DNA from: an uncultured Clostridia bacterium
GTDB taxonomy: Bacteria > Bacillota > Clostridia > TANB77 > CAG-508
Direction: 5' to 3'
Length of the DNA: 64,000 nucleotides
Assembly: GCA_944392105.1 (NCBI GenBank)
Contig: CALXVM010000003.1
Location: 40,735 to 104,734 of the forward strand
Part shown: in pieces, positions 5,526 through 48,696 of the stretch
How the letters are laid out: every line of letters starts with the position of its first letter
Position numbering within the stretch: the stretch's first letter is position 1
Program-made: the position numbers and the translations under genes
Notes under the pieces: generated by a model
Told to the model about the DNA's origin: nothing
What the model saw: the letters and a program-made list of their open reading frames with translations, nothing else
Database searches by the model: none

Positions 5526-6698
5526 TTGATAGAACATGAAAGGATGAACTTTATAATGAATAACAAGAAAAATATTTTAATAACACAAATACATATGGCT
5601 GTTGGTGGTATAGAAACAGTTTTACTTAATTTATTAAATAGCTTAGATAAAGACAAATACAATATTGACCTAGTACTTTACTATCCACGTGGAGAATTTA
5701 TAGATAAAATTCCTTCTTGGATTAATGTTATTCCTGTATGGGATAACACAAAACATAAAACCTTTTGGAAAGACATAATAATGTCAAGAAATATTGTTAA
5801 AAGAGTTTTAAAAAATTTATTAGTAAATAATTTAACAGTTAAACATTTTGTATCTAAAAAACAATATGATGTTTCTATATCTTTTTGTGGGTACCATGTA
5901 TTTTCAAATGCTTTTGCTGCAAAATCTAATGCTAAAAAGAAATTAATATGGGTTCATGCAGATTTTGCAAAACAATTTAAATTAAGAGAAGAATTTAGAA
6001 AACAATTTAAAAAAATATATAAACAATATAAATATTTCGATAAAATTGTATGTGTTAGTGAATCTGCTTGTGATGAATTTAAGAAATTCAAGCCAGAACT
6101 TTCTAATAAATTAGACTATTGCTGGAATATAATTAAAGAAAGAGAATATCCAGACTCTAACGAAAATATAAAATTACAAGACGGATTTAATTGCATTACT
6201 ATTTCTAGATTAGTAAAAACAAAAGGTATAGAAAAACTAATAGACTTAGCTAAAATGATAAAAAGAGATAATTTAAAATGTCATCTATATGTTGCAGGAG
6301 ACGGTGCTCTTCGCCCATGGTTAGAAGAACAAATTAAAGAAAATTATCTTGAAAATTATATAACATTACTGGGAAATGTCATTAACTTAGTTCCAGTATT
6401 CAAAAAATGTAACTTATATATTTCACCATCAGATTTAGAAGGATTACCTACAGTCATTGTAGAAAGTCTGTTAGAAGGAATCCCTGTTATTGCAACACCT
6501 ATAACCGGTACCATGGATATATATAACCACATGGCACCTCAAGGTTCTATGATTCTCTCAAAAGATACTTCTGCAGAAAGTCTATACGAATGTTTAAAAA
6601 CAGCATTAACTGCCTCTCCTTTTAAACCTTTTAAATTAGATATTGATAAAATAAATTCAGAAACTTTAAAAAGGTTCGAAGCTTTTTTAGGAAATTAG
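5526..6698 (+). CDS. GT4-family (GT-B) glycosyltransferase
   Basis: C-terminal EGLPTVIVESLLEGIPVIAT (E-x7-E) motif and an N-terminal GGIETV loop. The true start is probably ATG 5544 or 5556. The last two codons and the stop (GGA AAT TAG) lie inside the repeat element at 6690. Confidence 0.8.
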   Translation: MIEHERMNFIMNNKKNILITQIHMAVGGIETVLLNLLNSLDKDKYNIDLVLYYPRGEFIDKIPSWINVIPVWDNTKHKTFWKDIIMSRNIVKRVLKNLLVNNLTVKHFVSKKQYDVSISFCGYHVFSNAFAAKSNAKKKLIWVHADFAKQFKLREEFRKQFKKIYKQYKYFDKIVCVSESACDEFKKFKPELSNKLDYCWNIIKEREYPDSNENIKLQDGFNCITISRLVKTKGIEKLIDLAKMIKRDNLKCHLYVAGDGALRPWLEEQIKENYLENYITLLGNVINLVPVFKKCNLYISPSDLEGLPTVIVESLLEGIPVIATPITGTMDIYNHMAPQGSMILSKDTSAESLYECLKTALTASPFKPFKLDIDKINSETLKRFEAFLGN

Positions 6699-6985
6699 GG
6701 ACAGGTCATTTCTTCCCGATTTGGGAAATTAGGGACAGGTCACCATTTCTAAATTTAAGAAAAAATAAATTATTTATATAAAAAAAGAGTAGTATTTTTC
6801 CGTTCAACTGCGGACGCACAGCTACTTAAAATTTGTGTGAACACAAATTTTAAGACCTTGTTTCACTAAAAATACTACTCTTTTTTATGAATTATATATA
6901 ATTAAACCTATTTTCTGTAAATTTATAAAGCGTGACCTGTCCCTAATTTCCCAAATCGGGAAGAAATGACCTGTCCCTAATTTCC
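6690..6985. mobile_element. MITE-like nested-palindrome element, full copy A (296 bp)
   Basis: Perfect 54-bp terminal inverted repeats: 6690..6743 GGAAATTAGGGACAGGTCATTTCTTCCCGATTTGGGAAATTAGGGACAGGTCAC and its exact reverse complement at 6932..6985. Each TIR holds two direct copies of GGAAATTAGGGACAGGTCA. The interior carries an 18-bp-stem hairpin (6781..6886) that encloses a second hairpin (6825..6854). No ORF. A near-identical copy lies at 59019..59322. Confidence 0.85.
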
Positions 6986-7441
6986 AATCTTCTCTTTCAA
7001 TTTTTTAATAAAATTCTCTGTATTGCTATGATATTCGTTTGGAATAAAGTTTCTTGCTTTTTCCACTATATCATCAATGTTATCTCCATCTTTAAATTCT
7101 AATATGTAGCCTTTTGCCACAAATGCGTTTATTAATTCTTCTTGGTGGTCGTCTACATGTTCATCATATTTTTGTAGTCTTGCACAACCTATTATCTTTT
7201 TACCTTTTTTTAATGGTTCTACTATAGAGCCAGTTCCTCCATGTGTAATAATTAAGTCTGCTTTATCTACTAATTCCGCCATTTCTTGGTATGACATAAA
7301 TTTCATTATTTTCATTTTATTACTTGTATATGGAGTATTGCCTGCTTGAACTATTATTTCGTCTTGTATATTTGATTTTTCTATTGCGTCAAGTAGCCTT
7401 GTAAATGGCTCTGCTTGTGTTCCTAAAGTTACTAAAATCAA
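6977..7441 (-). CDS. PssE/Cps14G-type glycosyltransferase subunit (Glyco_tran_28_C / Alg13-like)
   Basis: ILVTLGTQ...ITHGGTGSIVE motifs. The start is taken at TTG 7441 behind GGGGGTGGA, overlapping the upstream stop (TTGA). The stop and last two codons (GN*) lie in the right TIR of element A. Confidence 0.8.
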   Translation of the reverse strand: MILVTLGTQAEPFTRLLDAIEKSNIQDEIIVQAGNTPYTSNKMKIMKFMSYQEMAELVDKADLIITHGGTGSIVEPLKKGKKIIGCARLQKYDEHVDDHQEELINAFVAKGYILEFKDGDNIDDIVEKARNFIPNEYHSNTENFIKKLKEKIGN

Positions 7442-7926
7442 TAAATCCACCCCCAATACTCTGCTTTTGGATAAAATTGTAACATACTTTCCCACTGTAC
7501 AACAAATGTTGTTGCTATAGGATATACCATTTTTCCTGCCATTGTAGGACTATTTTGTTTAGCAAAGCTTTCTATAAATATTACTTTTCTTCTAAATAGT
7601 CGTGCTATGTAGCACATAGGAACTGCTGTATGTGTACCTGTTGTTACAACTACTTTGGGTCTATATTTACAAAATAGATAAAACGATTTAATTATATTAA
7701 ACAAAAACTTAAATATGTAAGGGAATAAATACTTTCTTGTTCCATAAATTAAATACTCTGTTTTATATTTTTCTTTCATATTTGTTGTAACACCTGTTTT
7801 TTCTGTTACTAAAACATAATTGTAGTCATTAAAGATTTTCTTTAGTTGTAGTAATTGAGTTAAATGTCCACCTACACTTGAGATAAACATTACTCTTTTT
7901 CTTGTATCTTTTTCCTTCTTTTTCAT
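7438..7926 (-). CDS. PssD/Cps14F-type glycosyltransferase subunit (Alg14-like)
   Basis: VMFISSVGGHLTQLLQL motif and a membrane segment. It is translationally coupled to the Alg13-like partner downstream. Confidence 0.8.
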   Translation of the reverse strand: MKKKEKDTRKRVMFISSVGGHLTQLLQLKKIFNDYNYVLVTEKTGVTTNMKEKYKTEYLIYGTRKYLFPYIFKFLFNIIKSFYLFCKYRPKVVVTTGTHTAVPMCYIARLFRRKVIFIESFAKQNSPTMAGKMVYPIATTFVVQWESMLQFYPKAEYWGWIY

Positions 7927-12899: not shown

Positions 12900-12959
12900 G
12901 GAAATTAGGGACAGGTCATTTCTTCCCGATTTGGGAAGAAATGACCTGTCCCTAATTTC
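12900..12959. repeat. 60-bp hairpin derivative (copy B) of the GGAAATTAGGGACAGGTC element family
   Basis: GGAAATTAGGGACAGGTCATTTCTTCCCGATTTGGGAAGAAATGACCTGTCCCTAATTTC. This equals the outer part of the left TIR joined to the outer part of the right TIR, forming 27-bp perfect arms. It looks like an internal-deletion derivative. Confidence 0.8.
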
Positions 12960-13053
12960 TAACTTTTTTCTTATTTTACTATTCCCTTTTAATAATTTTT
13001 ATAGTATAATATTAATAGTTGTGAAAATTCTTCAAGTTTAGGAGGTGGGTAAT

Positions 13054-28564: not shown

Positions 28565-30316
28565 CTATTTTTTGTCATTTAGAATAATATGTACATCATC
28601 AAGTTGCTCTTTACTTACTCTACTAGGAGCTCCCATCATTACATCTCTTGCTTTTTTGTTTTTTGGGAAAGCAATTACTTCTCTTATATTCTTGCTATCT
28701 GCAATTAGCATAACCATTCTGTCTAAACCTGGTGCTGCTCCTGCATGAGGAGGTGTTCCATATTGAAATGCATTATATAAAGCCCCAAATTTTGTCTTAA
28801 CATCTTCTTCTGTATATCCTGCAATTTCAAAAGCTTTTACCATTAATTCTGGATTATGGTTTCTTACTGCACCAGATGCAACTTCATAGCCGTTGCAAAC
28901 TGCATCATATTGATATGCTAATATATCTAATGGATCTTGATTATTTAATGCTTCCATACCACCTTGTGGCATTGAGAAAGGATTGTGATTAAAATCTATT
29001 GTTCCTTCATCAGATAATTCATACATTGGAAAATCTACTATAAAGCAGAATTTATATACATTTTTTTCTATTAAATCTAGTCTATTTCCAATCTCAATTC
29101 TGACTAGTCCTGCTATTTTTTGTGCTGTTTTAAACTCATCTGCTATAAAGAATATGCTATCTCCGTTTTTTGCTCCTAATTCTTCTAGTCCTTGTTTTAC
29201 TTCGTCTGTAATAAATTTAGCAATTCCACCTGTGTAGTTTCCGTCTTCTAATTTTACCCAAGCTAAGCCTTTAGCTCCCGCTTCGTTTATTGCAAATTCA
29301 TTCATATTATCAAAGAATTTTCTTCCTTGTTCTGCACCATTTGGTACAATAATAATTTTAACTGTCTTGCCTTTAAACGCATTAAACTCTGTGTTTTTAA
29401 ATAATTCTGTTGCATCTTGTATAATAAGTGGATTTCTTAAATCTGGCTTATCTATTCCGTATTTTTCCATAGCCTCTCTATAAGGAATTCTTACAAATGG
29501 TGGTTTTGTTACCTCCCAATTGGTGTGCTTTTTAAATACTGTTGTAAATATCTCTTCCATAGTAGAAAGCACATCTTCTTGCTCTGCAAAGCTCATTTCA
29601 AAGTCTAGTTGATAGAACTCACCTGGTGCTCTATCTGCTCTAGGGTCTTCATCTCTAAAACATGGAGCGATTTGATAATACTTATTAAATCCAGAAACCA
29701 TAAGCAATTGTTTAAACTGCTGTGGGGCTTGAGGAAGCGCATAAAACTCCCCTGGATGTAATCTACTTGGTACTAAGTAGTCCCTTGCTCCTTCTGGTGA
29801 TGAGTTTGCCAAAATTGGAGTTTGAATTTCTTTAAATCCCAACTCATTCATTTTATCTCTTAATGTTTTTATAATATCACTACGAAGTAAAATTGTTTGG
29901 TGTAATTTATCATTTCTTAAGTCCAAAAATCTATATTCTAAACGTAGGTCTTCACGTACATCTCCTGCTTTGTCAGAATTGACTTCAAAAGGTAATACAT
30001 TTTTACATTTACCTAAAACTTCTATTTTCTCTGCATCTATTTCAATTTCTCCTGTTGGAATTTTGTCATTTTTATTTGACCTTTCAACAACATTTCCTAC
30101 AACTTGTATTACGCATTCTGTTACAACATCTTTTAAATCTTCGTCTGTTATGCTACTTTCAGAAGATATTACAATTTGTGTAATTCCAAATTCATCTCTT
30201 AAATCAATAAACTTCATTGAACCTAAGTTTCTAATTCTTTGTACCCATCCTGCTAATGTTACTTTTTCTCCTACATTTTTTATTGTTAATTCTCCGCAAT
30301 TATGATCTCTATACAT
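28565..30316 (-). CDS. aspS: aspartate--tRNA ligase
   Basis: The start is MYRDHNCGEL at ATG 30316 behind AAGGAGAG; the ORF-track extension to 30412 reads into the repeat element. Class II motifs FRDEDPRADR and GLDR are present, along with the OB anticodon-binding N-terminus. Confidence 0.92.
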   Translation of the reverse strand: MYRDHNCGELTIKNVGEKVTLAGWVQRIRNLGSMKFIDLRDEFGITQIVISSESSITDEDLKDVVTECVIQVVGNVVERSNKNDKIPTGEIEIDAEKIEVLGKCKNVLPFEVNSDKAGDVREDLRLEYRFLDLRNDKLHQTILLRSDIIKTLRDKMNELGFKEIQTPILANSSPEGARDYLVPSRLHPGEFYALPQAPQQFKQLLMVSGFNKYYQIAPCFRDEDPRADRAPGEFYQLDFEMSFAEQEDVLSTMEEIFTTVFKKHTNWEVTKPPFVRIPYREAMEKYGIDKPDLRNPLIIQDATELFKNTEFNAFKGKTVKIIIVPNGAEQGRKFFDNMNEFAINEAGAKGLAWVKLEDGNYTGGIAKFITDEVKQGLEELGAKNGDSIFFIADEFKTAQKIAGLVRIEIGNRLDLIEKNVYKFCFIVDFPMYELSDEGTIDFNHNPFSMPQGGMEALNNQDPLDILAYQYDAVCNGYEVASGAVRNHNPELMVKAFEIAGYTEEDVKTKFGALYNAFQYGTPPHAGAAPGLDRMVMLIADSKNIREVIAFPKNKKARDVMMGAPSRVSKEQLDDVHIILNDKK

Positions 30317-30426
30317 ACATATCTCTCCTTTTTTGGAAATTAGGGACAGGTCCCAATTTCCGGTTTTCAGAAATTGGGGACAGGTCACGATTTCCAAGTG
30401 TGTCGTGCACACCGTTTACGACATAT

Positions 30427-30455
30427 ATTATACACCGGATATCCGTAGTTAGCAA
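30427..30455 (-). promoter_or_regulatory. promoter TTGCTA-17-TATAAT inside element C, reading toward aspS
   Basis: On the minus strand, the -35 is at 30455..30450 and the -10 at 30432..30427, with a 17-nt spacer. This is the only recognisable promoter between the terminator and the aspS start. Confidence 0.5.
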
Positions 30456-30491
30456 GAGGATTTTGTTAAGCTTATGCTAATAGGTAAAAAT

Positions 30492-30528
30492 AAAAAATAC
30501 TAATCTCTTTCTGAAATTAGTATTTTTT
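30492..30528. terminator. bidirectional Rho-independent terminator inside element C (ends the adhE transcript)
   Basis: 12-bp stem AAAAATACTAAT / ATTAGTATTTTT with an A-run before and a T-run after. Confidence 0.7.
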
Positions 30529-30645
30529 AATTAATCTATATATTTTATAATACAATTTTCTCAATACACTCTTGAAATTCTTTTTGAAAGTTATTTTTTC
30601 GTGACCTGTCCCCGATTTCCCGATTTGGGAAATTGGGACCTGTCC

Positions 30646-33249
30646 CTAATTTCCATAGTAGCTATCTAATAATATTTGTTTTAGTTCGCTAACTAGTGGA
30701 AGTCTTGGGTTTGCTGTTGTGCATTGGTCTTCAAAGGCTCTATCGGCAAGCATATCTACTTTTGCTAGGAATTCTTGTTCATCTATTCCTGCTTCTTTAA
30801 ATGATTTTGGGATGTTTAAATCATTGTTTAATTTTTTAATTTCTTCAATTAATGAGTTTACTCCTTCTTCATTTGTGTATGCAGGGAAGTTCATCCTTCT
30901 TGATAAGTCTGCATATTTTTGGTCTGCTATAAAGTATTCATATTTAGGAAATGAGACAAATTTTGTTGGCATTTGGCTATTATATCTTATTACATATGGT
31001 AATAGTATTGCATTAATTCTTCCATGTGGCAAATGGAATTCTGCTCCTATTTTATGAGCTAGTGAGTGGTTTATTCCTAAGAAGGCATTTGTAAATGCCA
31101 TACCTGCTATTGTACTTGCATTATGCATTTTTTCTCTTGCTTCTTTGTTACTTCCATTATTGTATGCTTCTCTTATATTTTTAAATACAAGTTCTACTGC
31201 TTTTTCTGCTAGTCCATCTGTGTAGTCTGATGCCATATTTGAAACATAGCTTTCTATTGCATGTGTTAATACGTCCATCCCTGTATCTGCTGTAATTGAT
31301 TTAGGTAGGCTCATAACTAAGTCTGGGTCAACTATTGCTACATCTGGTGTTAATTCATAATCTGCTAAAGGATATTTCTTATTTTGAGTTTTATCTGTAA
31401 TTACTGCAAATGATGTTACTTCTGAACCTGTTCCAGATGTTGTTGGTATTGCTACCATTTTTGCTTTTATTCCCAATTTAGGGAATTTATATGTTCTTTT
31501 TCTTATATCCATAAATTTAAGTTTCATACCTTCTGGGTCTGCTTCTGGGTGCTCATAAAATAGCCACATTCCTTTTGCTGCATCTATTGGGCTTCCTCCA
31601 CCTAATGCAATAACTACATCTGGCTTAAACTCTTGCATTAGTTTTACACCTTTGTTTATTGTATCAAAAGATGGGTCTGACTCAACATCTGAGAATATTT
31701 CTGAGTGAACATATTCTTTTCTCTTTCTTAAATAATATAAAATTTTATCAACATATCCTAACTGTACCATTGATGGATCTGTTACTATAAATGCTCTTGT
31801 TATATCTGGCATTTTTTCTAAGTATTGAATAGAACCTGCTTCAAAATATATTTTTTCTGGAACTTTAAACCACTGCATATTTACCCTCCTTTTAGCAACT
31901 CTTTTTATATTTATTAGGTTTACACTTGATACGTTTGCTGTTGTTGAATTTCCTCCAAATGTTCCACATCCTAAAGTAAGTGATGGCATATTAGTATTGT
32001 ATATATCACCAATTGCTCCATGTGTAGATGGTGAATTTACTATAATTCTTCCTACCTTTACTGTTTCGGCAAATTTTTGAATTGTATCTCTATCTTCTGA
32101 GTGTATAACTGCAGAGTGTCCCATTCCTCCAAATTCTATTAATTTTTCTGCTAAATCTATTCCTTCATCTGAATTTTTAACAATATAGTATGCAAGTACA
32201 GGACTTAACTTTTCTTTTGAAAATGGATATTCTATACCTACACCATTTTCTTTTAATACTAAAACTTTTGTATCTTTTGGAACTTCTATTCCTGCTTCTC
32301 CTGCTATTTTATATGGACTTTGACCAACTATAGCAGAATTTAAAGCCCCATCTTTTTCTTTTATAAACATTGTATTTCTTAGTCTACTTGTTTCTTCTTC
32401 AGATAAGAAATAGCAACCTGCTTTTTTCATTAATCTTTCGAATTCATCTTTAATTTCTTCGTCTACTATAACAGATTGTTCTGATGCACAAATCATTCCA
32501 TTGTCAAATGATTTTGAAAGTACTAAGTCATTTACAGAAGTTTTTAATTTAGCAGTTTTATCTATATAACATGGTACATTTCCTGGTCCTACACCTAATG
32601 CTGGCTTTCCGCATGAGTATGCAGATTTAACCATTCCGCTTCCACCTGTAGCTAAAATTAAATTCACCCCAGGATGATTCATAAGAAGTGTTGTTGCTGT
32701 AACTGATGGTTCTTCTATCCATAAAATACAATTTTCTGGTGCACCTGCTTTTATAGCAGCATCTCTTAAAATTTTTGCTGCTGCCACACTACATTTTTGT
32801 GCTGATGGATGAAAGCCAAAAATTATAACATTTCTTGTTTTTGCTGCAATTAATGACTTAAACATTGTTGTTGAAGTTGGATTTGTAACTGGCGTTACAC
32901 CTGCTATAATGCCAATTGGCTCTGCAATTTCTTCATATCCTTCTTCTTCGTTTTCATTAATTACGCCAACTGTTTTATCATACTTTATGCTATGGTAAAT
33001 ATATTCTGTTGCAAACATATTCTTAGTTATTTTGTCTTCGTAAATTCCTCTTCCTGTTTCTTCAACTGCCATTTTTGCAAGTTCCATATGATGTTCTAAT
33101 CCTGCCATTGACATTTGTTTTACGATATTATCTATTTGGTCTTGGTCCAATCTCATATATTCTTTAGATGCTGTTTTGGCTTTTTCTACTAAGTCATCTA
33201 TCATTTTGCTAATTCTGTTTCTTTCTTCTTCACTAACTGGATTTGCCAT
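30646..33249 (-). CDS. adhE: bifunctional acetaldehyde-CoA/alcohol dehydrogenase AdhE
   Basis: 867 aa: an N-terminal ALDH domain and a C-terminal Fe-ADH domain ([10 protein letters not shown], HxxxH region). AAAGGAGG RBS. The last two codons plus the stop lie in the right terminus of element C. Confidence 0.95.
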
Positions 33250-42013: not shown

Positions 42014-42436
42014 TTACTCAATCTTTTTTAACTCTTTTTTGGTATAATTATAATTTAACAGTATAAATAATAAACCGAAATAAAATACCAATAAAATTAT
42101 ACTAGTAAAAAAAATGAACCCTGTCATATTTTTATCTTCTATCATATATAAGTTCGATGCATTATCTATTTTTGTATTCTCTTCTTTTAGATAATTTATT
42201 TCATATTGTTGGAAATAAATTATATCAAAATCCCTTACCGTATCTGCCCATCTGTTTGTTTTTAAAAATAATATATATGAATCACTTGGCAATCCTAATT
42301 CTAAATTTAAATTTTCATTTTTAAAAAACATAATAACATAATCTTTGATGCACCATTTAAAGCTAATTATTATTAAGGTAACAATCAAAATAAATATTAG
42401 TATATTTGTAAATATACATACAAATTTTTTCATCAT
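42014..42436 (-). CDS. hypothetical two-TM membrane protein
   Basis: 140 aa with TM segments at both ends. A decayed paralog lies at 47974..48223. Confidence 0.45.
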   Translation of the reverse strand: MMKKFVCIFTNILIFILIVTLIIISFKWCIKDYVIMFFKNENLNLELGLPSDSYILFLKTNRWADTVRDFDIIYFQQYEINYLKEENTKIDNASNLYMIEDKNMTGFIFFTSIILLVFYFGLLFILLNYNYTKKELKKIE

Positions 42437-42562
42437 ATCTCCTTTTCATATTTTGAACTGGTTTTGTCTAAAATAGATTTTATGCTATATAATTCTTATT
42501 TTTATAATTCTATATAACAATATTTCTCTAATAATAAAAAACCGCATAAATTCAAGAAACAA

Positions 42563-42985
42563 CTATTCCATTTTGGGTATAATCTTATATTTTATTATAA
42601 ATATACAAAATAGTAATATTATAAAATAAGGCAATGAATATTTGATAAAAGCTTCTCCTTTTCCATTATGTTCTCTTACAAATTCAGGAGATACACCTAT
42701 TTCTATACTTTTATAAAACAAACTTGGAAAATATTGCATAATTTTAACTTCATTATTTTCCATGTTATAATCAGCTTCTAGAGTGATTATACTAAAATTT
42801 CCTATACTATATATTCCTTCATTTCTTAATGCTTTTCTATTTTTATTATTACACCACATTACGCTATCATAATGTAAATATATTGTAAACAGTGTTTGGA
42901 ATATTCTAATAATTGCTATGCTAACTATTAGAATTATAAAGATTATCAAAACAAAATATTTTATTTTTTTTACATTTTCCTTCAT
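42563..42985 (-). CDS. hypothetical two-TM membrane protein (paralog of 48322..48696)
   Basis: 140 aa. It aligns along its length with 48322..48696 (IAIIRIFQ(T/A)L(F/L)TIYL(H/Y)YDSV ... NGKGEAFIK(Y/C)SLPYFIILLF). The paralog lacks a 16-aa segment. Confidence 0.5.
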   Translation of the reverse strand: MKENVKKIKYFVLIIFIILIVSIAIIRIFQTLFTIYLHYDSVMWCNNKNRKALRNEGIYSIGNFSIITLEADYNMENNEVKIMQYFPSLFYKSIEIGVSPEFVREHNGKGEAFIKYSLPYFIILLFCIFIIKYKIIPKME

Positions 42986-47973: not shown

Positions 47974-48223
47974 TCACTCAGTCTTTTTTAGTATAATTAT
48001 AATTTAACAGCATAGATAACAAAGCTAAATAAAATACCAATAAAATTATACTAATAAAAAAATGAAACCTGACATATTTTTATTTTCTGTCATATATAAA
48101 TTCGATGCACTATCTATTTTTACATTTTCGTTTTTTAAATATTTTATTTCATATTGTTGGAAATAAATGATATCAAAATCACTTACTATATCTGTCCATC
48201 TATTTGTCTTTAGAAATAATATT
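47974..48223 (-). pseudogene. 5'-deleted copy of the 42014..42436 membrane-protein gene
   Basis: The DNA aligns with 42014..~42270, including the stop position. The part carrying the start codon and first TM is missing, with the junction near 48223. No ORF of 60 aa or more is listed here. Confidence 0.6.
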
Positions 48224-48321
48224 TGTCTAAAATATATCTTATGTTATTTTTATAATCCTGTATAACAATAATACTTGTTGTTTTTCTCATTAATAAAAAA
48301 ACAGATAAATTTGATAAATAA

Positions 48322-48696
48322 CTATTCCATTTTTGGTATAATCTTATATTTTATTATAAATATACTAAATAGTAATATTATAAAATATGGTAATGAACAC
48401 TTTATAAAAGCTTCTCCTTTTCCATTACGTTCTCTTACAGTTTCAGGAGATACATTTATTTCCGTACTTTTATAAAACAAGCTTGGAAAATATTGCATAA
48501 TTTTAACTTCATTATTTTCCATTCTATAATCAGTTTTCAAAGTAATTATACTAAAATTTCCTATACTATAAACACTATCATAATATAAGTATATTGTAAG
48601 CAGTGCCTGAAATATTCTAATAATTGCTATGCTAATCACTAAGACTGTAATAATTAAAAAAATAATATGTTGTATTTTTTTTATATTTTTCATCAA
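48322..48696 (-). CDS. hypothetical two-TM membrane protein (paralog of 42563..42985)
   Basis: 124 aa, lying immediately downstream of the 782-aa hydrolase gene on the same strand. Confidence 0.5.
   Translation of the reverse strand: MMKNIKKIQHIIFLIITVLVISIAIIRIFQALLTIYLYYDSVYSIGNFSIITLKTDYRMENNEVKIMQYFPSLFYKSTEINVSPETVRERNGKGEAFIKCSLPYFIILLFSIFIIKYKIIPKME

Follow-up and report, generated by a model that had tools for sequence, protein, structure and literature searches.

A stop-codon-bearing hairpin repeat at gene 3' ends in an uncultured gut Clostridia lineage, probably a REP/RAYT-like system

In an uncultured Clostridia bacterium the adhE reading frame closes inside a repeat: its last two codons and its stop are the first nine nucleotides of a sequence that recurs across the genome. 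The question is what kind of repeat this is and how its copies came to lie on the stop codons of genes. The window (the whole stretch of DNA analysed, 64,000 nucleotides) contains four genes that stop at the TAG of GGAAATTAG, all in one frame and at the coordinates given in the initial annotation:

5526..6698, plus strand: GT4-family glycosyltransferase gene (Pfam GT4/Glycos_transf_1), ending ...EAFLGN-stop
6977..7495, minus strand: Glyco_tran_28_C (PssE/Alg13-like) gene (Pfam), ending ...KEKIGN-stop
30646..33249, minus strand: adhE, 867 aa, with the AdhE C-terminal motif
30646..30654, minus strand: last two adhE codons and stop, GGA AAT TAG, identical with the first 9 nt of the unit
59314..60240, minus strand: LD-carboxypeptidase (S66) gene (Pfam), ending ...EPCVGN-stop

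The window has 11 occurrences of GGAAATTAG where 1.04 would be expected, and 0 of 100 shuffles reached 11. In the complete repeat unit of ~53 nt, segment 1 (GGAAATTAGGGAC) is followed by the complementary segment 2 and then by segment 3, which is a direct copy of segment 1. It is a directional three-segment doublet of the REP type with a periodicity of 34 nt. The genome (G000, 1.50 Mb) contains 120 matches to the 18-mer and 73 outer unit ends. Copies are found as singlets, inverted doublets and clusters, are mostly extragenic, and in the majority are solo units of 53 nt or 19 nt. The stability of their hairpins ranges from -11 to -52 kcal/mol. No target-site duplication was detected at any copy examined, and the flanks of all copies in the window are free of direct repeats. 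An Rfam search of the whole window gave no match that reached the gathering score; the unit and the hairpin module enclosed by some copies (see below) are therefore not described RNAs. Among 61 genomes the unit is common only in G000 (91 matches) and G030 (60 matches), while in G018 there are no intact units.

The region around the end of adhE is built as follows:

30601..30654, minus strand: solo REP-type doublet unit at the adhE 3' end (outer 18-mer GGAAATTAGGGACAGGTC, complementary segment, inner copy GGAAATCGGGGACAGGTC)
30391..30600, no strand: native adhE-aspS spacer
30335..30390, plus strand: second solo unit, its outer end ~5 nt upstream of the Shine-Dalgarno sequence of aspS on the other strand
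28565..30316, minus strand: aspS, 583 aa, class II aaRS with GAD domain (start ATG 30316-30314)

The stretch 30601..30654 is one solo copy of the REP-type interspersed hairpin repeat, and its likeness to the other copies stops after ...GGACAGGTCA. It had been described as the terminal inverted repeat of a longer element. This reading fails, as 30391-30600 is native spacer, ~80% identical to the adhE-aspS spacer of G018 (79.6% in window positions 30418-30592). A single MITE spanning 30335-30654 was rejected for the same reason: two solo units bracket native DNA. The second of them has a counterpart at the same place in G030. As RNA, the hairpin of the adhE unit begins 2 nt past the UAG (-23.9 kcal/mol, z -4.5). 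No U-run follows the unit hairpin, and at adhE the native terminator is still found downstream.

The end of AdhE itself is native. It had been suggested that the insertion replaced a longer tail, but in all 20 same-genus AdhE orthologues read (20/20), and in one from a different family of the order, 1-6 residues follow YYG. The C-terminus in the genus is YYG[KNR](E/D)(V/A)-stop or shorter, and the homologues in relatives have open frames of 862-907 aa. AdhE of 99%-identical G018, a genome with no intact unit, ends SYYGN-stop (GGA AAT TAA), and that of G013 ends SYYGK-stop. Since the glycine belongs to the YYG motif in every orthologue read, it was not donated by the repeat, and the terminal asparagine was probably also native already. 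The function of adhE is unchanged.

The other copies in the window that bear on the question are composite or palindromic:

6690..6985, no strand: composite 296-bp element, two inverted units (~6690-6743 plus, 6932-6985 minus) around a structured hairpin module (core ~6812-6886)
59019..59322, no strand: composite 304-bp element of the same family, whose right unit gives the GN-stop to the LD-carboxypeptidase gene
12900..12960, no strand: 61-nt near-perfect palindrome in a REPIN-like minimal form (two outer unit arms), in the intergenic DNA that separates nrdD from an NfeD-like gene, -52 kcal/mol

The composite element at 6690..6985 supplies the GN-stop of both its convergent neighbours. Orthologues of the GT4 gene end ...DLLK-stop in G030 and ...SLIGN-stop in G018, the latter with a 27-nt remnant palindrome; those of the Glyco_tran_28_C gene end ...KEKIG-stop in G030 and G013. 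Homologues of the LD-carboxypeptidase end ...CVK-stop, ...CVE-stop or ...CVEN-stop. Directly adjoining the far end of 59019..59322 lies AAATAAAT, which resembles the native GAATAAAT tail of G018, and this copy therefore has the look of a genuine insertion, one codon ahead of the stop. No strain of the same species lacking this insertion was found: the nearest full-length proteins are 90-91% identical, and a metagenome scan for the joined flanks found none. The palindrome at 12900..12960 touches no gene end and is conserved in G030. Full-length composite copies number three (6690-6985, 59019-59322 and C1:71453-71741), measure ~290-304 bp and have inverted ends of 54-94 nt. Their hairpin cargo module also stands alone in G018, with no intact unit beside it.

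These three copies would suit an ordinary MITE, the non-autonomous derivative of a DDE transposon, with a stop in its inverted repeats by coincidence, but such an origin is extremely improbable given that target-site duplications are missing at every copy, most copies are solo units of 53 nt or 19 nt, the adhE "element" encloses native DNA, the cargo module occurs alone in G018, and the only gene found bounded by these repeat ends encodes a Y1 transposase at a fixed locus.

The link between the units and the extreme 3' ends of reading frames, proposed from the four genes in the window, holds across the genome and is far beyond chance. Gene-end copies, defined by an ORF of at least 100 codons with its stop within -9 to +40 nt of the unit start, make up 41 of the 73 outer ends in the 1.50 Mb. 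About 40 outer ends lie within 8 nt of a stop and only about a dozen at 9-100 nt. The main register, +6 (GGA AAT TAG), accounts for 24 of the 73; register -5 (TAG/TAA TT, then GG of the unit) is seen at 7 outer ends and register -2 (xTA, then G) at 4. There is no copy in register -3, although it would be equally harmless. Of the ORFs reading into a unit, 24/28 do so in one frame (binomial p=1.6e-8). Genome-wide, the ending GGA A(A/G)T TAG with unit-like sequence behind it is shared by 27 ORFs that are 150 codons or longer, and Gly-Asn is the second commonest C-terminal dipeptide. In the other repeat-carrying MAGs, the +6 register is used at 14 of 20 gene-end copies.

The idea that the insertion replaces the native stop is also borne out: in most of these genes the TAG of the unit stands in for it. 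The cost to the protein is small. In comparisons of 24 genes with orthologues lacking an intact unit, the last 0-2 residues are substituted, the length changes by -4 to +3 (mostly 0 or +1), and none is greatly truncated. In the 11 units of registers -5 and -2, the TAG is placed where relatives have their stop; at all 11, which are mostly missing in G030, a repeat-side G or GTT follows the TA of the relatives' stop position (mostly TAA). Reassignment of TAG in an alternative genetic code was ruled out because relatives without intact units have their stop at the position of the unit's TAG or only a few codons away from it (in registers -5 and -2 at the same codon). TAG ends 257 of 1048 long ORFs, mostly without a unit.

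What happens in the other frames was only partly as annotated. The predicted 13 extra residues in the next frame are correct for copies with an inner GGAAATTAG (6985 and 59322 and, by sequence, 6690), but the adhE copy has no stop for 21 and 36 codons in its other two frames. At the 6690 terminus, the flanking TA and the G of the element already form a TAG in the next frame.

The gene bounded by these repeats is the following:

C23:19954-20748 of G000: RAYT-like Y1 transposase gene, between a GH15-like gene and radA

The predicted protein (~265 aa) matches Pfam Y1_Tnp (PF01797) with 53 bits against a cut-off of 23 and contains an H-V-H motif; Pfam has no match for its C-terminal half. Both of the Y1_Tnp genes in G000 have NF047646 ("REP-associated tyrosine transposase") as their best NCBIfam match, with 72 and 78 bits, just under the cut-off of 80. 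Each genome has one closely related RAYT-like copy and a distant paralogue. Homologues occupy the same locus between the GH15-like gene and radA in G030 (62% identity) and G013 (57%). The gene is thus single-copy, has a fixed chromosomal locus and is vertically inherited in G000, G030 and G013. In G030 the RAYT-like ORF (1501-2310) lies between inverted doublets of exactly this unit, at 1241/1275 (plus) and 2354/2388 (minus). In G013 it lies between inverted doublets of that genome's own variant, GGTAATTGGGGACGTTTCC, which is also found at G013 gene ends. The G000 gene is flanked by a unit stub and mainly by related family-B palindromes, not full units. G018 lacks a RAYT: its syntenic locus has lost the gene by deletion and retains 66 nt of decayed repeat. 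The sequence of the repeat therefore co-varies with its transposase (G030, G013), and the repeats are decayed where the gene was lost (G018).

Such an arrangement is known from the REP/REPIN-RAYT systems (E. coli TnpA-REP with BIMEs; Pseudomonas and Neisseria REPINs). Shared with them are the tens of short, hairpin-forming repeats (singlets, inverted doublets and clusters) that lie mostly at the 3' ends of genes; the Y1 (HUH) transposase gene, present once between inverted repeats at one locus and vertically inherited; and the decay of the repeats upon loss of the gene. RAYT genes have been described as single-copy and REP-flanked (PMC2817692), and REPINs as decaying after RAYT loss (bioRxiv 10.1101/2021.07.10.451892). 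The differences lie in the host, an uncultured small-genome gut Clostridia lineage, in the transposase, which is longer (about 265 aa) with a C-terminal half lacking a Pfam match, and in the unit, a three-segment directional doublet with 34-nt periodicity and no GTAG tag. The GTAG tetranucleotide is absent from the palindrome end in the 5' flanks of the 73 copies.

REP termini that supply the TAG stops of flanking ORFs were described in 2013 (Di Nocera, De Gregorio & Rocco, PMC3733652), and the present repeat is therefore a further case of a known habit. As in the GTAG-tagged REPs of that study, the terminus gives the ORF its TAG and the repeats lie a few nucleotides from ORF ends. Here, however, the main TAG is 6 nt inside the stem, so that the unit also encodes two residues (Gly-Asn), and one third of the outer ends are so used. 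The closer analogue of the GTAG case is the second TAG, in the optional 5' TAGTT. A likeness to the TIRtrons of the same paper was also noted: a RAYT-like gene lies between longer inverted repeats that also form a dispersed family, and where the TIRs flanking TIRYT genes share the motif GGGGWSAS, the inner repeat GGAAATTGGGGACAGGTC contains the fitting GGGGACAG (the G013 variant GGGGACGT fits only in part). TIR families are moderately abundant and known from a limited number of genomes (PMC3733652), whereas here 73 outer ends are found in 1.5 Mb. With IS200/IS605 elements (IS608, ISDra2) the system shares the Y1 HUH domain (PF01797), hairpin-bearing ends and the lack of target duplication, but the gene is neither multi-copy nor mobile as a unit, and the short repeats have spread without it. 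Rickettsia palindromic elements likewise join coding sequence without destroying the gene; they sit in-frame inside ORFs and add 20-50 residues, whereas here only the last two codons and the stop are repeat-derived. This is not a new kind of element, but it brings uncultured small-genome gut Clostridia into the host range of REP/RAYT-like systems, with co-variation of repeat and enzyme and decay after gene loss.

Whether the repeat donates the Gly-Asn end could be judged from orthologues without it, and these give a mixed answer. Some relatives lacking an intact unit do end in GN or near variants, but such tails look like decayed repeat, and donation is therefore neither cleanly refuted nor supported. 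In G018, 9 of 24 tails agree with GGAAATTAG in at least 7 of its 9 positions, where the background is 5.9% (p=5e-6). These tails look like remnants of repeats in a lineage that lost its transposase, although some could be native look-alike targets. In G013, whose repeat variant lacks the +6 TAG, four genes carry the tail VIGDVS-stop instead.

Two sites suggest that the junction between gene and unit can move. At C1:107838, G030 has NK-TAG-TT-unit (register -5), G018 has the remnant TAGTTGAAAAT, G013 ends NK-stop, and G000 is 11 nt shorter and ends GN-stop. At C12:10825, G030 reads caaT followed by AGAAATTGG and G000 reads cag followed by GGAAATTAG. The registers also appear to differ in age: G030 has a unit at the same place for 10 of 22 +6 sites (13 with remnants) but for at most 1 of 10 sites of registers -5 and -2, a comparison that uses our own classification of the sites (Fisher p=0.056, or 0.011 with remnants).

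Taken together, the repeat is probably a REPtron/TIRtron-like REP system at gene 3' ends, in which the Gly-Asn-stop ends arise by insertion near stops, sliding of the junction and a frame filter. By analogy, the single-copy RAYT-like HUH-Y1 (IS200-like) enzyme presumably copies and maintains the family via single-stranded hairpin DNA. A unit would first insert at or beside a stop; copies of this kind are mostly species-specific and have their 5' G or GTT after the TA of the relatives' TAA. Small deletions or re-insertions would then move the junction into the +6 register, which would be the most compact state and, because the first 9 nt are now coding, a self-protecting one. The sliding and compaction step is suggested by the two clear sites and the marginal age test. 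The frame filter would act because the only early stop of the unit is the +6 TAG and the other frames run for 13 to more than 30 codons: a gene with a displaced or deleted stop would survive only via the +6 frame, and nearly all fused genes would thus end Gly-Asn-stop. The frame filter and random insertion alone cannot explain ~40 ends within 8 nt of a stop.

This excess could instead reflect direct targeting, with the Y1 transposase inserting at a short target, either stop codons (after TA, or 3' of ...TT) or GGAAAT-like sites, and the registers following from the insertion chemistry. A parallel would be the IS200/IS605 elements, whose insertion site lies 3' of a fixed tetra- or pentanucleotide that base pairing recognises. 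The constant G or GTT after the stop-position TA in registers -5 and -2 and the empty -3 register agree with it. So does the 5' flank of the outer ends: 48 of 73 copies have TT there, where 14% is expected (TAGTT or TAATT at all 7 copies of register -5; six outer ends adjoin a Shine-Dalgarno complement ending in TT). A native GGA codon (Gly) lies exactly under the GGA of the unit at four sites, adhE and three other genes (GGA or GGAAA(A/T) beneath the 5' end), which hints at sequence-guided placement and not blind insertion. In G013, units of its own variant are found at 8 of ~36 of the same gene ends. However, TA and TT are everywhere in a genome of 28% G+C, and an extra, so far undefined specificity would be needed. 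Three different registers exist, and they differ at orthologous sites among G000, G030 and G013. In those far flanks that do align, native DNA is frequently absent and not displaced. A search for exact empty sites in G018 (BLAST and local alignment of far flanks) gave significant matches for 5 of 40, a mixture of insertion and replacement, the intergenic DNA being too diverged. Direct targeting is possible but the less likely explanation.

A bolder version, in which the Y1 transposase sets units on stops with near-nucleotide precision (by the TA of the stop and/or likeness to GGAAAT), is unlikely. The unit would then be a portable "two codons + stop" cassette: the host would come to need the nine bases on which its gene ends, these would outlast both repeat and transposase as remnants that can still be recognised, and successive variants of the repeat would return to the same gene ends as the enzyme evolves. 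If true, it would mean stop-codon-directed single-strand transposition and a repeat-host entanglement not described for REPs.

Less likely still is selection for function, which is compatible with the other explanations: a stable hairpin at, or 2 nt after, the stop would be useful as an RNA element, in 3'-end protection, in the tuning of translation termination or ribosome rescue, or in the uncoupling of neighbouring genes, and units abutting stops would be kept. Orthologous sites share the exact 18-mers although the coding DNA beside them differs by 4-16%, a pattern that RAYT-driven turnover explains equally well. The hairpins are stable and on the transcribed side of genes (including adhE and a 1172-aa ORF), and post-transcriptional roles are proposed in the REP literature. 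Against this, the hairpin has no U-run, a native terminator still follows at adhE, and G018 lost all its units without replacement.

The series of species (repeat-rich, variant-bearing and transposase-less) is natural material on how REPs settle on stop codons. For annotation, about 25 proteins, including AdhE and the 1172-aa protein, carry a repeat-derived Gly-Asn end, and gene callers and repeat maskers face nine nucleotides that are at once coding and repeat. Exact 18-mer matches were also seen in Verrucomicrobiota, Opitutales and Bryobacteraceae MAGs; they were taken as chance, as ~17 are expected for an 18-mer in 596 Gb.

Four open reading frames (ORFs) in the window stop on the TAG of the 9-mer GGAAATTAG, at exactly the coordinates that the initial annotation had claimed. 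The window contains 11 copies of the 9-mer, where about 1 would be expected.

Window genes whose stop is the TAG of GGAAATTAG
5526..6698, + strand, GT4-type glycosyltransferase ORF (Pfam)
6977..7495, - strand, Glyco_tran_28_C (PssE-like) ORF (Pfam)
30646..33249, - strand, adhE ORF (AdhE C-terminal motif present)
59314..60240, - strand, LD-carboxypeptidase ORF (Pfam)

The whole source assembly (1.50 Mb, 27.9% G+C, 31 contigs; the window is C3:40735-104734) was searched with the 18-mer GGAAATTAGGGACAGGTC, allowing up to 3 mismatches. The 120 matches resolved into 73 outer ends of a repeat unit and inner copies 34 nt further in. At 41 of the 73 outer ends the stop of an ORF of at least 100 codons falls within -9 to +40 nt of the unit start: 24 at +6 (GGA AAT TAG), 7 at -5 (TAG or TAA, then TT and the unit's GG), 4 at -2 (xTA, then the unit's G) and singles elsewhere. 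Only about a dozen more lie 9-100 nt behind a stop. ORFs reading into a unit do so in one frame in 24 of 28 cases (p=1.6e-8), so the single-frame use at ORF 3' ends seen in the window holds genome-wide, with 24 of the 73 outer ends at +6. In addition, GGA A(A/G)T TAG with unit-like sequence behind it closes 27 ORFs of 150 codons or more, and among the C-terminal dipeptides of the genome Gly-Asn ranks second in frequency. Register +6 is also foremost in other repeat-carrying MAGs (14 of 20 gene-end copies). The pattern is real, general and statistically overwhelming. Of the 73 copies, 48 have TT as their 5' flank (genomic TT frequency 14%), and the complement of a Shine-Dalgarno sequence adjoins six other outer ends, as at aspS.

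Alignment of all copies shows that their likeness stops after about 53 nt. The consensus, GGAAATTAGGGACAGGTC-CCAACTTCCC-GATTT-GGGAAATTGG-GGACAGGTCA, consists of segment 1, a complementary segment 2, and a segment 3 that directly copies segment 1. Many copies are solo 53-nt units, while some are 19-nt half units, perfect palindromes or composites of two inverted units around a structured module. No target-site duplication was seen at unit or composite copies. As RNA, the unit is predicted to form a hairpin from 2 nt past UAG (-23.9 kcal/mol, z -4.5) with no U-run 3' of it, or alternatively a 27-nt hairpin with UAG inside the stem. The adhE site carries two solo units. The DNA that separates them, from 30390 to 30601, shares about 80% identity with the spacer between adhE and aspS in relative G018, a genome without intact units; 30601-30654 is therefore not the terminal inverted repeat of a MITE, as had been proposed.

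Repeat forms and related elements (C, contigs of the source assembly)
window 12900-12960, perfect palindrome of the repeat
window 6690-6985, window 59019-59322 and C1:71453-71741, the three composite elements, about 290-304 bp
window 6790-6895 (core about 6812-6886) and 59105-59225 (core about 59118-59192), structured module
C10:9607, C11:21055 and C15:49693/49832, examples of structured modules outside the window
C1:127714, C8:6107, C8:65335, C12:10825 and C23:19744, among other sites of the GGAAATTGGGACCAGATC palindrome family

The structured module is the cargo of the three composites and also stands alone (11 copies in the assembly). Its core, CGTTCGACTGCGGACGCACGGCTACTTA...AAGACCTTGTCTCACT, is conserved between copies and caps a long outer stem; the stem varies in sequence from copy to copy but stays complementary, and an A-run and a T-run flank it. 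It had no Rfam match, and it is found in G018 despite the lack of intact units there. A related palindrome family, GGAAATTGGGACCAGATC...GATCTGGTCCCAATTTCC, also occurs; its copies often follow directly on a unit or on a unit stub of 9-19 nt, fused to it. At C8:22986, locus L003 of the same species (flank 100% identical) differs by 34 nt within one unit, a 53-nt unit against a 19-nt half unit and exactly one repeat period; this could reflect transposase excision, slippage between the direct 18-mers or assembly collapse. Two window segments of about 0.7-0.95 kb (42033-42984 and 47982-48695) are 80-89% identical to each other and unrelated to the REP family.

Orthologous gene ends were compared at all 41 gene-end sites in relatives G018, G030 and G013. 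AdhE homologues in relatives have open frames of 862-907 aa. The twenty same-genus orthologues read at the C-terminus end in YYGK, YYGR, YYGKE, YYGNEV, YYGKEV and similar, one of them in YYGNPVLS; a single AdhE from another family of the order ends in AYYGE. The G018 protein (99% identical, no intact unit) ends in SYYGN (GGA AAT TAA GGAC), that of G013 in SYYGK, and G030 adhE has a unit at the same place. The initial annotation had suggested that the element donated the Gly and perhaps replaced a native tail. The Gly belongs to the YYG motif, the orthologues end shortly after it, G018 reaches SYYGN without an intact unit, and a long E. coli-type tail is absent from the orthologue C-termini read in this lineage; neither suggestion survives.

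C-terminal tails of the other three window proteins (residues before the stop)
LD-carboxypeptidase: CVGN; relatives CVE, CVK, CVEN; many CVK in the protein database
PssE-like (Glyco_tran_28_C): KEKIGN; relatives KEKIG
GT4 glycosyltransferase: AFLGN; G030 DLLK; G018 SLIGN, with a 27-nt remnant palindrome

Against orthologues without an intact unit, the products of the 24 genes at +6 range from 4 residues shorter to 3 longer, and most are equal in length or one residue longer. The repeat swaps the last residues and the stop, and the proteins are not truncated.

One frame is used because only GGA AAT TAG stops early in the unit; the other two stay open for 13 to more than 30 codons, and read-in through them is rare (2-4 cases). 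The frame does not by itself account for the clustering of units on stops. In the 11 copies at -5 or -2 the repeat-side G (or GTT) comes after TA where relatives have their stop, mostly TAA. These copies are mostly specific to the source genome: by our own classification, at most 1 of 10 such sites is common to G030, against 10 of 22 sites at +6 (Fisher p=0.056), or 13 of 22 with remnants (p=0.011). At C1:107838, G030 reads NK-TAG-TT-unit, G018 has a remnant of the G030-type end, and the source genome is 11 nt shorter and ends in GN. At C12:10825, G030 has caaT followed by AGAAATTGG and the source genome cag followed by GGAAATTAG. From these alignments it appears that the junction can move between registers. 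In our preferred reading, units would insert at or next to stops, small deletions or re-insertions would afterwards shift the junction, and +6 would be the compact, self-protecting end state. Direct sequence-guided targeting of units to stops is a serious competing explanation: at adhE and three other genes the unit's GGA coincides with a native GGA (background Gly 2.5-3.9% at the last two positions), and unit flanks are TT-rich. Clean empty sites were sought in far flanks against G018 and, for the LD-carboxypeptidase insertion, in the protein database and metagenomes; none was recovered.

The source genome has two Y1_Tnp (IS200-like) genes, and the top NCBIfam match of both proteins is 'REP-associated tyrosine transposase' (RAYT; 72 and 78 bits, cut-off 80). 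The gene at C23:19954-20748, with a GH15-like gene on one side and radA on the other, has homologues at the same locus in G030 (62% identity) and G013 (57%). It is flanked in G030 by inverted doublets of exactly the source unit, in G013 by inverted doublets of the variant GGTAATTGGGGACGTTTCC, also present at G013 gene ends, and in the source genome by a unit stub and the GGAAATTGGGACCAGATC family. In G018 the gene is deleted at this locus, and all that separates the upstream stop from the ribosome-binding site of radA is 66 nt of decayed repeat. Of 61 genomes from the genus and order, just two have the unit in abundance, the source genome (91 matches) and G030 (60 matches).

Of 24 tails in G018, nine share at least 7 of the 9 positions of GGAAATTAG (background 5.9%, p=5e-6), for example GGAAAATAG, AGCAATTAG, CAAAATTAG, GAAAATTAG, GGAGATTAGGGACAGATCAC and GGAGAATAGGGATAAC. 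Since G018 lost the transposase at the syntenic locus, we read these tails as probable remnants kept as coding sequence; they could instead be native look-alike targets. At G018 loci L066/L069, orthologous to window 6690-6985, convergent glycosyltransferase genes are just 9 nt apart, and their last two codons and stops make a 27-nt palindrome, GGAAATTAGG-TTTTTAC-CCTAATTTCC, which looks like the residue of a composite element after interior deletion. In G013, 8 of about 36 corresponding gene ends bear units of its own variant; its fused genes (n=4) have a different tail, VIGDVS, so the tail depends on which variant of the repeat is present. Gene ends remain occupied while the repeat sequence turns over along with its enzyme.

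In REP/REPIN-RAYT systems the RAYT gene is single-copy with REPs on its flanks (PMC2817692), and repeats decay once it is lost (bioRxiv 10.1101/2021.07.10.451892). Here too, repeats of the family flank a RAYT-like gene at one locus and are decayed in RAYT-less G018; unit and transposase show the defining traits of such systems. The inner repeat holds GGGGACAG, fitting the GGGGWSAS motif in the inverted repeats of 'TIRtrons' (Di Nocera et al., PMC3733652). The GTAG tag that marks classical REPs is missing. The same authors found convergent REPs mostly <20 bp from ORF ends, and REP termini supplying TAG stops were described in 2013 (PMC3733652). The stop-supplying repeat is a further case of described behaviour, from a host group new to it. 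What may be new is that the stop lies inside the stem, so that two codons are supplied as well, that one third of outer ends serve as gene stop, that remnants outlast transposase loss, and that each repeat variant gives its own C-terminal tail.

The other RAYT-like gene of the source genome (225 aa, C23:2194-2841; region C23:1975-2900, outside the window) has an inverted repeat of its own on either side, GGGGACGGAGATTTTTGACAAC. Upstream, the copy sits within the final codons of the 314-aa ORF that precedes the gene (...MGTEIFDNLINEDKK, then stop), another C-terminus overlapping a transposase-associated repeat.
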